Assembly (NCBI GenBank): GCA_032250735.1
Contig: JAVVEP010000005.1
Span: 91,602 to 155,601 of the forward strand
Reading direction: 5' to 3'
DNA length: 64,000 nucleotides
From: Gammaproteobacteria bacterium
GTDB lineage: Bacteria > Pseudomonadota > Gammaproteobacteria > SZUA-152
Part shown: in pieces, positions 18,394 through 36,215 of the stretch
Layout of the letters: the number at the start of each line of letters is the position of its first letter
How positions within the stretch are numbered: position 1 is the stretch's first letter
Program-made: the position numbers and the translations under genes
Notes under the pieces: generated by a model
What the model was told of the DNA's origin: nothing
Seen by the model: the letters and a program-made list of their open reading frames with translations, nothing else
Database searches by the model: none

Positions 18394-19029
18394 GTGATGA
18401 CACAACAGGTCAATTTGTTTCAGCCCCTGTTCCGCAAGGAGCGCAAGTTGCTGTCGTTCCGCGTGCTGTGGCAGGGCGGCGCGGCAGTTGGGGTGTTGCT
18501 GATGCTGATGTATGGCTGGGGCCTGCAACAGACCGCGCAGATGAGCGCCGAGCTAAAAAAACAGCAGGCCCAGCAGCAGCTGTTCAGCCGCCAGCTGGGC
18601 GAGGTGAGCGCCCGCCTGGCGGTGATGAGGACCGATACCGCCCCGCAGCGGCAGCTGGCCGAGCTGGAGCGCGAACTGGTGGCGCGTCAAAAAGTGGTCG
18701 ATGCCCTGACCCGTGTGCGTGACACCTATACCCAGGGGGTTTCGGCCTATCTGGACAGTTTTTCCCGTCAGGCCCCCCAGGGTGTCTGGCTGACCGGGTT
18801 TACCGTACAGGCCGGTGGCGAGGGGCTGGTGATTCGGGGCAGCTCGCTGCGGCCCGAGCTGGTACCGACCTTTCTGGAGCAACTGGCGACCGAGAGCACC
18901 CTGCTGGGCACCCAGTTTGGCCTGTTGCAGATCCAGCGCAGCAGCGCCGATGCCCAGGCCGTGGATTTCACGGTGACCACCGGCACCGAGGCGCCGGAGG
19001 CCAGCCGTCTGCTGGAGCTGACCCCGTGA
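18394..19029 (+). CDS. MSHA biogenesis protein, PilN-like (MshI C-terminal-type)
   Basis: 211 aa with a single N-terminal transmembrane segment and a coiled coil. First gene of the msh operon. Confidence 0.5.
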   Translation: MMTQQVNLFQPLFRKERKLLSFRVLWQGGAAVGVLLMLMYGWGLQQTAQMSAELKKQQAQQQLFSRQLGEVSARLAVMRTDTAPQRQLAELERELVARQKVVDALTRVRDTYTQGVSAYLDSFSRQAPQGVWLTGFTVQAGGEGLVIRGSSLRPELVPTFLEQLATESTLLGTQFGLLQIQRSSADAQAVDFTVTTGTEAPEASRLLELTP

Positions 19030-19045
19030 ACAGGGCAATAAGACA

Positions 19046-19759
19046 ATGACAGTAAAAGAGAGAATCAGCGCCTGGGCCGAGCGTTACGAGGCCTTCTCCC
19101 TGCGCGAGCGCGGGCTGGTGATCGTGGGGGTGATCGTGCTGCTGTTCATGCTCTGGGACAGCCTGCTGATGACCCCGGAACAGCAGCGGCAGACCCAGAT
19201 CGTGGCGCAGATGCAGGCGATGAATCAGCAGACCGAGGCGCTCAATCTGCAGATTCAGGAGATGTCGGCGGCCCTGCGCGGCGGTGAGGCCCAGCATATC
19301 CAGGCGCGCACCACCGAGCTACAGGCGCTGTTGGCCGGTCTCGCACAGAAGCAGGAAGATCTGACCGTCCAGTTTATTCAGCCCCGACAGATGGCGGCGG
19401 TATTGCGCGACATGCTGTCGGCGGAGAACGGCCTGGAGCTGACCCAGTTGACCAGCCTGGGCGCGCAACCCCTGTTCCCCCCGACCCGTGAAGAGACCGA
19501 AAACGCGGCCACCAGTGCAGCGGCCCCGGCGCTAAAAACCACCGCCCGGTCGCATCGCCCGGAGGTCTTTAAACACGGCCTGCGGATCGTGTTCGAGGGC
19601 GACTATTTCAAGACCCTGGCCTATCTGCGCGCACTGGAGGCCATGCCCTGGCGCCTGTACTGGGACAACGTGGAATATCTGGTGACCGATTATCCCCGCG
19701 CACGGGTCGCCATCACGGTACACACCCTGAGCCTGCATGAGGGCTGGATCGGTGTGTAG
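19046..19759 (+). CDS. mshJ: MSHA biogenesis protein MshJ (PilO-like)
   Basis: 237 aa with an N-terminal transmembrane segment and coiled coil, in operon position. Confidence 0.5.
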   Translation: MTVKERISAWAERYEAFSLRERGLVIVGVIVLLFMLWDSLLMTPEQQRQTQIVAQMQAMNQQTEALNLQIQEMSAALRGGEAQHIQARTTELQALLAGLAQKQEDLTVQFIQPRQMAAVLRDMLSAENGLELTQLTSLGAQPLFPPTREETENAATSAAAPALKTTARSHRPEVFKHGLRIVFEGDYFKTLAYLRALEAMPWRLYWDNVEYLVTDYPRARVAITVHTLSLHEGWIGV

Positions 19760-20156
19760 CTATTTAAAGCTAGAGAAATATCTGCCGCCCGCGCTGTTGT
19801 CGCTGGTCCTGCTGGGAGTGTGGCCGGTGCAGGCGATGCAGGACCCCACCCGTCCGCCCGTGGCCGAGGCAACGGCCCGGGCGGTGGCTGTGCAGCAAAA
19901 CTCGTCGCCCCGCTGGACGCTGCATTCCACCCTGGTGTCCTCGGCCAGGCGCACGGCGGTGATTAATGATCGCGTGGTGAGTCAGGGTGATCGCATTAAC
20001 GGTGCGACCGTGGTGAGCATTCAGCCGGCGGCGGTGCTGCTGCGGGTCGCCGGTCGTGAGCTGAGATTGGGGATGGAAAAGAAAAATATTAAATCATTGT
20101 CGCGAACCGATTCCGCGGGACATTCCGCAGTACCTTCCGTAGTACAAGGGAAATGA
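19737..20156 (+). CDS. mshK: MSHA biogenesis protein MshK-like
   Basis: 139-aa small secreted protein immediately upstream of the secretin gene. Confidence 0.4.
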   Translation: MRAGSVCSYLKLEKYLPPALLSLVLLGVWPVQAMQDPTRPPVAEATARAVAVQQNSSPRWTLHSTLVSSARRTAVINDRVVSQGDRINGATVVSIQPAAVLLRVAGRELRLGMEKKNIKSLSRTDSAGHSAVPSVVQGK

Positions 20157-34481: not shown

Positions 34482-35438
34482 ATGTTTTCGCTGCTGGGAA
34501 AAAACCACAAGCAATCGATCGTCGCCATCGTGCCGGGCGAGGCGGGTCTCACCGTCGCCGCCATCAGTCATGATGCCGACCGGCCCCGTCTGCAACTGTG
34601 CGATTTTTCCCCCTGGGAAGAGGGCGTCGGGCATGAGGTGTTGCTGGCCCGGAAGGCCAAACAGTTTGGCCTGAAAAAATACGACTGCACCACGGTCATG
34701 GGTCTGGGCGAATACGCGGTGCTCAGCGTCGACGCCCCGGACGTGCCGCCGGCCGAGTTGCGTGCTGCGGTACGCTGGCAGGTCAAGGACCTGATCGACT
34801 TTCATGTCGACGACGCCATTATCGATGTGTTTGATGCCCCCGCCAGCGGGGCCCATGGCCAGCTCAATAAACTGTATGTAGTGGTCTCGCGGACTTCCAC
34901 CGTGCGCGAGCGGGTGGACCAGTTGCAGGAGGCGGATGTGAACCTTACCACCATCGACATCCCGGAGCTGGTGCTGCGCAACATCACCGCCCGCCTGCCG
35001 GAAAACGAGGCCGGCGTGGCCATGGTGTATCTCACCCGTGACCGCGGGGTGGTGGTGGTCGCCCGTCAGTCGACCCTGTATTTTGCCCGCACCCTGGATA
35101 TCGGTTATCGCTACCTCAATCAGGGCGCCACCGGCGATTCGGGGCTAAGCCTGGAGAGCAATGCCGCCTTTGATAGCCTGGTGCTGGAGGTGCAGCGTTC
35201 GCTGGATTATTACGACCGGTATTTTGCCCAGCCCCCGGTAGCCGCCCTGGTGCTGGCGCCGACGGTGGAGCCGGTGCCCGGTCTGGCGGAATACATACAT
35301 CAGGCCCTGGGGCTGTCGGTGCGCCAGCTGGATCTGGCCGAGATCGTGGATGCCGAACCCCCGCTTTCCATGGCCGACCAGGCGCACTGTCTGGCCGCGA
35401 TCGGCGCCGCCCTGCGCGAAGAGCCGGTGGTGCTGTAG
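34482..35438 (+). CDS. mshI: MSHA biogenesis protein MshI (PilM-like actin-fold)
   Basis: 318 aa with PilM/MshI N-terminal similarity. Its stop codon TAG is the first base triplet of the MITE-Y terminal inverted repeat. Confidence 0.55.
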   Translation: MFSLLGKNHKQSIVAIVPGEAGLTVAAISHDADRPRLQLCDFSPWEEGVGHEVLLARKAKQFGLKKYDCTTVMGLGEYAVLSVDAPDVPPAELRAAVRWQVKDLIDFHVDDAIIDVFDAPASGAHGQLNKLYVVVSRTSTVRERVDQLQEADVNLTTIDIPELVLRNITARLPENEAGVAMVYLTRDRGVVVVARQSTLYFARTLDIGYRYLNQGATGDSGLSLESNAAFDSLVLEVQRSLDYYDRYFAQPPVAALVLAPTVEPVPGLAEYIHQALGLSVRQLDLAEIVDAEPPLSMADQAHCLAAIGAALREEPVVL

Positions 35439-35653
35439 GGCGCAATAACCGAAGGGCATTGCGCCGCATGTGGCCAGCCGGAAAAACAATCGCATAGGTG
35501 CCTTTATGGAAACTCGCACATACTCTGCCAATGTGTGACGCCAGGGCAACTCTAAAAATCTGCCCTGCGAGGCATTTCCCGCCGGCCAGTCAAAACGATT
35601 CTGCCTTGGGCGATATTTCATACGGCGCAATGCCCTTCGGTTATTGCGCCCTA
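35437..35653. mobile_element. MITE-like element family Y, second copy in inverted orientation
   Basis: Its 30-bp terminal inverted repeats are identical to those at 7762..7978, and the internal sequence is the reverse complement of copy A. Confidence 0.65.
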
Positions 35654-35816
35654 CGGTGCTGACGCCCGGTTAAGCCGATTTTCGTCTCTCCATACTGTGA
35701 CGCCGGTCACAGTTCTCACCTTTTTCCTGATGCCCGCCACCCACAAGCCGTTAAACAGGGTGGAGGCCCTGTTTGGGGTTAGGTGCGGATCTTCCGCATG
35801 GCATGGGAGAGATGAG

Positions 35817-36215
35817 ATGAACAGTTCTTCAAACACGTATGCAAACACTTATTCAAAGTCGGGCGGATTCACCTTTATTGAGCTGATGATCGGTCTGGTC
35901 CTCATCGGCGTGGTGGGGGCCGTTGCGGTGCCCAGTTATGTGAACGCCGCCCAGCAGGCCAAGGACGATTCGCTGTGGGAGCACAGTGTTAAGGCAAAAA
36001 ATACCCACGATCTTCTGATGACTCACGGCGCGATGCCGACGGTGAGCGATCTGGCGGCGGGGATGCTGGGTAGTGTGGTGGCGGTGGCGGATGGTGTGCA
36101 GGTGCAGCATTCCGGTGCGACCTATGTGGTGCCGACCTATTCCAATGCCCTGTGCACGGTGCCGACCCGGAAGGTGGACGAGGCGGTGGCCTGTGTGGGG
36201 TCGATCGCCAGTTAA
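35817..36215 (+). CDS. Additional type IV pilin (MshA/MshB-like)
   Basis: MNSSSNTYANTYSKSGGFTFIELMIGLVLIGVVGA prepilin motif. The upstream part of the tracked ORF lies in MITE DNA and was trimmed. Confidence 0.6.
   Translation: MNSSSNTYANTYSKSGGFTFIELMIGLVLIGVVGAVAVPSYVNAAQQAKDDSLWEHSVKAKNTHDLLMTHGAMPTVSDLAAGMLGSVVAVADGVQVQHSGATYVVPTYSNALCTVPTRKVDEAVACVGSIAS

Follow-up and report, generated by a model that had tools for sequence, protein, structure and literature searches.

The window analysed here is a 64,000-nucleotide stretch of contig JAVVEP010000005.1 (positions 91,602 to 155,601 of the forward strand) from an uncultured gammaproteobacterium (assembly GCA_032250735.1). We focused on a locus at window positions 18394-36215 that encodes a pilus of the mannose-sensitive haemagglutinin (MSHA, or MSH) type. 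An open reading frame (ORF) listing was combined with Pfam and NCBIfam domain scans of all ORFs in this interval, with the curated equivalog cutoffs applied. This placed 16 co-oriented ORFs on the forward strand in the order I2-J-K-L-M-N-E-G, A, Q-C-D-O-P and I1, followed by a miniature inverted-repeat transposable element (MITE) and a second pilin gene (A2). The gene content, order and coordinates agree with a preliminary description of the stretch that had been made from the sequence alone. The genes and features of the locus are as follows (aa, amino acids).

18394-19029, forward: MshI2, PilN-like inner-membrane alignment protein, 211 aa, first gene of the locus (PF05137, E 4e-9)
19046-19759, forward: MshJ, GspM/PilO-like (T2SSM-like) protein (PF04612, E 1.4e-6; collinear with relatives)
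19737-20156, forward: MshK, small GspC/PilP-like (T2SSB) protein (PF16537, E 7.9e-7; GspC_delta, E 1.9e-5)
20153-21961, forward: MshL secretin (TIGR02519 pilus_MshL, 279.3 bits, cutoff 250.2)
21964-22881, forward: MshM, ExeA-like AAA_22 ATPase (PF13401, E 8e-30)
22885-24219, forward: MshN, TPR protein, PilW/TadD-like (TPR families; PilW model E 6.7e-13, under cutoff)
24222-25928, forward: MshE, extension ATPase with an N-terminal MshEN domain that binds cyclic di-GMP (c-di-GMP) (PF00437, E 8e-132; PF05157)
25952-26072, no strand: inverted-repeat element of 121 bp at the mshE/mshG junction, 34-nt arms starting GTAGGG (repeat analysis)
26091-27311, forward: MshG platform protein (PF00482, T2SSF, E 3.8e-54)
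27608-28009, forward: major pilin, MshA-like, 133 aa, 6-aa leader MKRQSG/FTLIEL (PF07963)
28104-28137, forward: terminator-like hairpin (intrinsic type) with an 11-bp stem plus T-run, directly 3' of the major pilin gene (sequence)
28168-31956 (ORF from 28084, 1290 aa), forward: MshQ-like giant protein, DUF6701, 1262 aa (PF20419, E 1.8e-91)
31956-32411, forward: MshC-like minor pilin, GspH/FimU type (PF07963, PF12019; by tblastn the first minor pilin gene of canonical loci)
32408-32974, forward: MshD-like minor pilin, GspI/PilV position (PF07963; tblastn against relatives)
32974-33993, forward: MshO-like minor pilin, GspJ/PilW position (N_methyl pilin match; cleavage at G/FTLVEM)
33990-34409, forward: MshP-like minor pilin, GspK/PilX position, 139 aa, without Glu5, N-terminal segment G/AALIAAIFVI (no Pfam match)
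34482-35438, forward: MshI1, PilM-like cytoplasmic actin-fold protein, last assembly gene, convergent with ntrC (PF11104, PilM_2, E 3.7e-12)
35438-35651, no strand: MITE of 214 bp with ~32-bp perfect terminal inverted repeats and TA duplication (repeat analysis)
35696-35711: perfect CRP/Vfr-type palindrome TGTGA-CGCCGG-TCACA, ~105 bp upstream of the second pilin gene (sequence)
35818-36215 (ORF from 35697), forward: second pilin A2, accessory, 132 aa, 17-aa leader (PF07963)
16755-17978, reverse, next to the locus: response regulator with REC and a degenerate GGDEF domain, AGEAR at the active site and RxxD I-site RQED kept (Pfam and translation)

A MshEN domain, an ExeA-like MshM, a TPR protein MshN and a DUF6701 MshQ are hallmarks of MSH systems, and all four are encoded here, together with the minor pilins C, D, O and P. 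The MshL secretin scored above its curated cutoff, with the GspD, PilQ and remaining secretin models all under theirs. MshE exceeds the threshold for the c-di-GMP motif NF053729 (71.5 bits versus a cutoff of 38), and its tandem RLGxxL...Q motifs are visible in the sequence. MshG, MshM and MshA were assigned via T2SSF, AAA_22 and N_methyl matches, without MSH-specific TXSScan profiles; by tblastn, the three are collinear with and 50-89% identical to genes of relatives (50-81% for MshM and the gene at the same position). Homologs of MshI1 at 50-93% identity carry the JGI name MshI, and the N-terminus of MshI2, QQVNLFQPLFRK, resembles the PilM-binding motif of PilN, which is kept in two of the related loci described below (L003 and L075). 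A literature search on the division of MshI into separate PilM and PilN genes was without useful result. The published definition of MSH has mshA, E, G, L and M as mandatory genes in a single locus with no peptidase (Denise et al. 2019, PMC6668835). The locus at 18394-36215 has the MshL secretin, MshE with MshEN, and MshG, MshM and MshA, and the domain scans revealed neither a prepilin peptidase nor a PilT-type ATPase among its 16 ORFs; all mandatory MSH components are thus present and intact. The absence of mshF, remarked on in the preliminary description, was borne out, because in tblastn four canonical MshF proteins (181-196 aa, pilin-like) gave no full-length match and aligned with the window only at the N-terminal pilin helix.

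The Vibrio/Shewanella order is mshHIJKLMNEGF-BACDOPQ, with mshI before mshJ and mshQ last. To our knowledge, MSHA pili have been studied almost only in Vibrio, Shewanella and Aeromonas, and the operon order there is treated as fixed. For comparison, a total of 185,579 species-representative genomes were scanned with an alignment of the PilM-like protein, which returned 80 loci. These were classed from ORF calls and from tblastn searches with every window protein, and the arrangements were mapped on a midpoint-rooted neighbour-joining tree of a single protein, PilM. They fell into three coherent clades of arrangement. Class 1, the clade of the window, comprises 18 related loci with Q-C-D-O-P-PilM, whose PilM is 49-78% identical to that of the window; the full interval from G to PilM reads A-Q-C-D-O-P-PilM in 14 of them, and the partial order Q-C-D-O-P-PilM is seen in 4 more. 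These loci form one clade in the PilM tree, their protein sizes are similar (Q 1039-1570 aa, C ~150, D ~175, O ~280, P 137-235), and ntrC-ntrB-glnA usually follows in convergent orientation. The locus with the next-best MshQ homolog (L003, a 58.7-kb contig; MshQ P0002, 65% identical) has an identical order from PilN to glnA, namely PilN, J, K, L, M, N, E, G, pilin, Q, four minor pilins, PilM, a reverse ORF, pilin, ntrC, ntrB, a DUF4124 gene and glnA. An exception is a pair of sister genomes (L020 and L021) with a split locus, in which C-D-O-P-PilM has unrelated genes upstream and is detached from the rest.

Class 2 (23 loci, including metagenome-assembled genomes of Thiogranum and Thiohalobacter) has (K)-L-M-N-E-G, four small pilins, a PilX_N-like protein and PilM, and no MshQ. 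The gap from G to PilM is 2.7-3.9 kb. In the loci where ntrC could be seen, it lies 20-600 bp downstream, with one exception. In most of these loci the PilX_N-like last minor pilin is 316-526 aa long, that is, 2-4 times larger than class-1 MshP. As classes 1 and 2 share the PilM-last arrangement beside ntrC, this arrangement is likely older than the class-1 order. The gene mshF is missing from all loci of both classes. Class 3 (26 loci) has a Vibrio-like start, PilM-PilN-J-K-L-M-N-E-G-F. In 13/26 of them, a true MshQ is encoded ~300 bp upstream of PilM, after an ECF-sigma-like gene and with no minor pilins ahead. The lack of minor pilins before this large protein had raised the doubt whether it is MshQ, which was lifted by its match to Q residues 346-1288 and its C-terminal motif ...FG.Y.G...IY.REPW. 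In three loci (L044, L054 and L073, at ~3900-4900), the mshQ at the head is preceded by the ECF-sigma-like gene and a small putative anti-sigma gene, a hint that the adhesin has regulators of its own. Four relatives (L001, L002, L005 and L006; MshQ 28-40% identical) have the canonical second half, E-G-F-pilin-C-D-O-P-Q. Thus, mshQ takes four states across the relatives, at the tail (Vibrio-like), at the head, directly after mshA, or absent, with the rest collinear. Some relatives have retained just a part of the system beside ntrC, L020 and L021 among them. In another (L026, PilM at 10001-10963) the PilM-like gene stands alone, the 5 kb upstream of it being free of msh genes, and mshM and mshN are apparently missing between the secretin gene and mshE in four more (L103, L106, L107 and L111).

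The start of the locus was profiled by a metagenome scan with the PilN-like protein. PilM was upstream in 0/10 class-1-like contigs with enough upstream sequence, and no PilM precedes the PilN-like gene in the window or in L003 either; many more distant contigs start with PilN or have PilM-PilN. In 9/10 of the class-1-like contigs, the PilN-like gene is immediately preceded by a homolog of the REC-GGDEF gene in opposite orientation. With its degenerate active site and retained I-site, this neighbour may serve as a receptor for c-di-GMP instead of synthesising it. The forward strand of the window has two more c-di-GMP genes, for a REC-GGDEF protein (47093-48298) and a dCache-HAMP-GAF-GGDEF-EAL protein (57052-60063), and this c-di-GMP-rich neighbourhood is relevant to a pilus whose ATPase binds the molecule.

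The comparison across relatives indicates that the gene order is a real and old lineage trait of an uncultured marine gammaproteobacterial group. It is a new organisational variant of the MSH system, which itself is known. The preliminary description was right that the order departs from that of Vibrio and Shewanella, the canonical second half being found in four relatives instead. It had taken the locus to be rearranged, which stands only in the deep evolutionary sense and not as a recent event, given the order in 18 related loci. It had also named an order universal in the organism's clade as what would speak against a peculiarity of this genome, and such an order is essentially what we found (18 loci, with L020 and L021 as the exception).

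The MITE at the 3' end of mshI1 (PilM), reported in the preliminary description, is real. A second copy, inverted and ~80% identical, is located 27 kb away (7763-7977); the copies are 214-215 bp long, have perfect 28-nt core repeats at both ends, and are bounded by TA on both sides of each. The terminal repeat has 4 matches in the window versus 0 expected. The insertion point is the TA of the mshI1 stop codon, and the first G of the element regenerates TAG, leaving the gene undisturbed. A 6-bp direct repeat, GGTGCT, was considered as the target duplication, but TA was preferred, since TA alone flanks both copies and the PilM proteins of all relatives end at the same leucine, exactly there. The terminal repeat was absent from all 86 loci examined (L001-L086), including every class-1 locus. 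In the nearest relative (P0121, 93% PilM identity), six short-read contigs break 31 bp past the stop codon, and these 31 bp are a variant of the MITE terminal repeat. Because the insertion is limited to such near kin and the gene order is far older, the sequences identify the MITE as a recent passenger and not the footprint of a rearrangement, for which the preliminary description had taken it. In addition, two intergenic sites (7546-7731 and 45319-45378) hold inverted pairs of another small palindromic repeat (CTGAGAGCCTGTGAAAAAATCGCCG...), and one of these sites adjoins the first MITE copy. Farther along the window, 67-nt inverted repeats (93% complementary) at 48411-50056 enclose a PAS-HisKA-HATPase sensor kinase gene (48611-49867), around which there are also five copies of CAAAGTCAAGCAATGACCCCAGACCC.

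Two other junctions of the locus carry small insertions. On either side of the element between mshE and mshG lies one copy of an imperfect 33-bp direct duplication (25925-25957 and 26084-26116) that spans the mshE stop and the first 9 mshG codons; the duplication re-creates the mshG start, and a decoy start is left ahead of the real one. The element is single-copy in the window and absent in L003, where the E-G gap is 19 bp. At the 5' end of mshO there are three in-frame copies of a 45-bp unit (32973-33116), each with the palindrome AAGGGGTCTGACCCCTT and encoding the peptide MAGYGYKGSDPFKRT. They lie between the mshD stop and the MshO prepilin cleavage site (window 32973-33177). In-frame starts occur only at 32974 and 33019, giving a leader of 68 or 53 aa, compared with 9-14 aa in most relatives. 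Two other loci (L008 and L009) have different in-frame insertions at the same D/O junction, which suggests that the MshO leader, being cleaved off, tolerates insertions. The E/G element and the mshO repeats are private or nearly private to the lineage, and all three insertions are inferred to be recent passengers.

The gap between G and A is a 296-bp AT-rich stretch upstream of the major pilin gene. The hairpin proper after this gene spans 28104-28129 and is followed by TATTTTTT. The four minor pilin genes match the four genes ahead of mshQ in canonical loci (tblastn); in particular, the MshP-like gene matches the gene immediately before mshQ in L001 and L005, and its N-terminus is similar to the PilX_N-like protein of L039. 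For the second pilin, the most likely start is ATG 35818 and not GTG 35697. It follows PilM in some class-1 relatives only, with homologs in L003, L008 and L009 (tblastn). At the equivalent position in L008, just after the PilM gene, the sequence TGTGACGCCCGTCACA shows that the CRP-type palindrome is conserved.

The giant protein encoded directly after the major pilin is 100% identical to NCBI protein P0001. Its position and identity are as previously described; the length of 1290 aa is not. Because the terminator hairpin falls within the first 28 codons of the 1290-codon ORF and the deposited start is ATG 28168, MshQ most likely starts there and has 1262 aa. The architecture (ORF numbering up to residue 1290) comprises a signal peptide, N-terminal DUF6701_2nd/3rd/4th domains (newer Pfam), Calx-beta (247-314), LamG (Laminin_G_3, 402-566) and DUF6701 (716-1288), and homologs are named MshQ by their sources. 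The C-terminus, ...ATATFGIFRGDDRYLYWREAP, is nearly invariant within class 1, and the motif FG.[FY]RGDDR..YWRE is common to the window protein and its homologs in loci of canonical order, such as ...ASFGQFRGDDRIIYWREILQ. With 37 homologs as input, AlphaFold2 gave a confident model of residues 700-1290 (mean pLDDT 89.4, pTM 0.79), in which the C-terminal 590 aa form an all-beta chain of Ig-like beta-sandwiches, with pLDDT <50 only in the last 12 residues of the monomer. The heads of class-1 MshQ proteins have 0-2 LamG domains and occasional Reelin-B-like or NIDO-like segments, and Calx-beta was seen in the window protein only. In V. cholerae, mshQ encodes a putative adhesin whose deletion lowers surface MSHA piliation (PMC7096442). 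AlphaFold modelling of the V. cholerae proteins adds the C-terminal strand of MshQ to the PilK homolog MshP, and the same 2026 paper used the conserved synteny of mshDOPQ with pilVWXY1 to equate MshQ with PilY1 and described enlarged PilK homologs in adhesin-less systems (PMC13533445). The preliminary description's suggestion of a tip adhesin is in line with these published hypotheses (PMC7096442; PMC13533445), and a PilY1-like tip adhesin docking on MshP is plausible for the protein in the window, judging from its sequence and predicted fold. A constant stalk and docking motif combined with a variable lectin-type head fits the tip-adhesin idea.

Upstream of the locus there is another large LamG protein (945 aa, Laminin_G_3, 12151-14988, reverse strand). 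It was considered as an MshQ paralog and rejected for lack of BLASTP similarity. It is flanked on the same strand by two genes of unknown function (15019-16248 and 10473-12116), one with a weak DUF1585 match.

Overall, it is highly probable that we are dealing with a complete MSH-type (MSHA-like) pilus locus of an uncultured gammaproteobacterium, with a gene order normal for its clade. That the genes instead encode a type II secretion system (T2SS), a generic type IVa pilus (T4aP) or a Tad system is scarcely credible. The T2SS and T4aP models do give good scores (GspE 538, PilB 580 and GspF 310 bits), and MshJ and MshK match T2SSM and T2SSB/GspC, respectively. All of these readings are rejected because their equivalog models stay under the curated cutoffs (GspD 184 vs 351, GspE 538 vs 630, GspF 310 vs 424, GspG 30 vs 89; PilB 580 vs 676, PilQ 139 vs 284, PilM 34 vs 133), with MshL the only equivalog to pass; TadZ, RcpA or TadB/C-like proteins were not found by the domain scans of the 16 ORFs, the MSH hallmarks are present, and the sources of the homologs name them MshI or MshQ. 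The closer domain analysis, named in the preliminary description as a possible refutation, thus upheld its choice of an MSH-type pilus. Equally hard to sustain is the view that a canonical msh locus was rearranged recently in this genome, with the MITE as the agent or as the footprint left behind. The element is indeed a MITE, it has a second copy at a distance of 27 kb, and it abuts the displaced PilM-like gene. Against this, 18 loci that diverged to 49-78% PilM identity share the order, the terminal repeat is in 0/86 loci, the position of PilM beside ntrC is also the rule in the second, Q-less clade of 23 loci, and the element, common only to the 93%-identical relative, lies exactly in the stop-codon TA, at the residue where the PilM of relatives ends.

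A decaying locus that no longer makes pili could be suspected from the insertions at the E/G, D/O and PilM/A2 junctions, the loss of mshF and the lack of an in-frame start codon near the MshO cleavage site. We consider this improbable, as all 16 ORFs are intact and have lengths as in relatives, and each insertion is either intergenic or in frame, the E/G duplication restoring the mshG start and the MITE regenerating the TAG stop. The in-frame D/O insertions have counterparts in L008 and L009, and mshF is missing throughout classes 1 and 2. The locus is apparently working, as far as can be read from its sequence. Several points nevertheless weigh against our interpretation. MshF is missing; the MshO leader of 53-68 aa is unusually long and could impair processing; and a sigma-70 promoter scan was at background (4 sites vs 5.6 expected), with only one site, before mshA, noted, so that the operon structure is inferred from intergenic gaps and one terminator. 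Moreover, the midpoint-rooted tree of a single protein, PilM, does not settle which order is ancestral. PilM-PilN adjacency is the rule in pilMNOPQ of the related T4aP systems. The reversed polarity, in which the PilM-last order would be ancestral for MSH and the Vibrio-type order derived, draws on the two large clades with PilM last beside ntrC (18 and 23 loci) and on the uncertain root. It is unlikely, if less so than decay, given that PilM-PilN adjacency is the rule also in Vibrio/Shewanella MSH and in 26 loci here, and that the adjacency of P to Q mirrors that of pilX to pilY1 (PMC13533445).

Under our preferred reading of an old lineage trait, the order would have arisen long ago via permutation of a canonical locus. 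PilM would have moved to the 3' end beside ntrC-ntrB-glnA, mshQ would then have been placed behind mshA, and mshF would have been lost. With low confidence, we suggest that the canonical order is kept in all classes when read as a circle and that only the cut point differs, lying at Q/I1 in canonical loci, at P/Q in class 3 with a head Q, and at I1/I2 in classes 1 and 2. Class 1 would need one exchange more, between the neighbouring blocks Q and CDOP, and class 2 the loss of Q. A tandem duplication followed by deletions could be the source of the permutations. More tentatively than we hold the identity of the locus, and short of calling it probable, we raise the possibility that mshQ is a positionally mobile, exchangeable adhesin module whose presence co-varies with the size of MshP, which is small with MshQ and mostly large (presumably self-complementing) without it. 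The larger last minor pilin in most Q-less class-2 loci would be an indirect point for the beta-strand-addition model. If the module reading is true, the natural variants are a ready-made comparative test of that model for licensing of the tip complex, and function does not depend on mshDOPQ/pilVWXY1 synteny. It is evident from the present loci that the synteny is not universal.

Based on the literature on Vibrio MSHA, T4aP and T2SS, the pilus would be built as follows. MshE loaded with c-di-GMP through MshEN would drive the major pilin to polymerise at the MshG platform. The PilM-like MshI1 would clamp the conserved N-terminal peptide QQVNLFQP of the PilN-like MshI2, and MshJ and MshK would complete the alignment complex with them; because the interaction is between proteins, the 15-kb separation of the two genes should be immaterial. 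MshL would form the outer-membrane pore, aided by MshM and MshN. MshC, D, O and P would act as the priming tip complex, with MshQ docking on the small MshP via its invariant C-terminal strand, so that the Ig-like stalk presents the variable lectin-type head (here Calx-beta and LamG) as a tip adhesin. A prepilin peptidase and a retraction ATPase would have to be encoded elsewhere. Transcription probably involves three or four units. The assembly genes would form one, mshA with its attenuating terminator another, mshQ-CDOP-I1 a third, and the second pilin gene, preceded by a CRP-type site of its own, the last. By its position behind mshA, the terminator would hold the pilin in excess over the tip genes.

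For uncultured marine and subsurface Gammaproteobacteria, these loci reveal machine genes that are collinear and an mshQ and a PilM-like gene that move. The clade without mshQ, mostly with an enlarged last minor pilin, offers a comparative handle on tip building and on the diversification of adhesin heads. The loci thus have some comparative value for the tip-complex question and would be unsurprising to a specialist. For annotation, order-based rules for MSH detection will mis-call such loci, and a MITE beside an odd gene order is not to be taken as its cause.

Among known elements, the MITE resembles those of the IS630/Tc1-mariner type in its length of 214 bp, ~32-bp perfect terminal inverted repeats, TA duplication, lack of an ORF and two diverged copies; it was assigned to no named MITE family, and no cognate transposase was identified within the 64-kb window. 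As a pilus system, the locus is closest to the MSHA of Vibrio cholerae and Shewanella, with which it shares the component set, including the split MshI (PilM-like and PilN-like), J-N, E with MshEN, G, the pilins, C/D/O/P and MshQ, and the single locus without a prepilin peptidase or retraction ATPase. It differs in its order (I2-J-K-L-M-N-E-G-A-Q-C-D-O-P-I1, as opposed to I-J-K-L-M-N-E-G-F-B-A-C-D-O-P-Q), in the PilM-like gene lying 15 kb from its PilN-like partner, and in mshQ preceding the minor pilins and not following mshP. It also differs in lacking mshF and mshH, in having a second pilin at the far end, and in its divergent neighbour with REC and a degenerate GGDEF.

The Q-less Thiogranum/Thiohalobacter loci of class 2 are similar in their order (K)-L-M-N-E-G-A-minor pilins-PilM, in having PilM convergent with ntrC-ntrB-glnA, and in lacking mshF. 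Unlike them, the window has MshQ, and the last minor pilin, mostly 316-526 aa (PilX_N-like) in class 2, is 137-235 aa in the window clade. With regard to PilY1/PilC of the pilVWXY1 systems, no sequence or fold homology to MshQ was found; MshQ consists of Ig-like beta-sandwiches and has no C-terminal beta-propeller, and its gene is upstream of the minor pilins and not downstream of a PilX-like gene. What they share is a large, secreted protein encoded with GspI/J/K-like minor pilins and variable in its N-terminal part. MshQ's far C-terminal end, conserved and disordered in the monomer model, fits the published beta-strand-addition docking on a PilK/PilX-like pilin.

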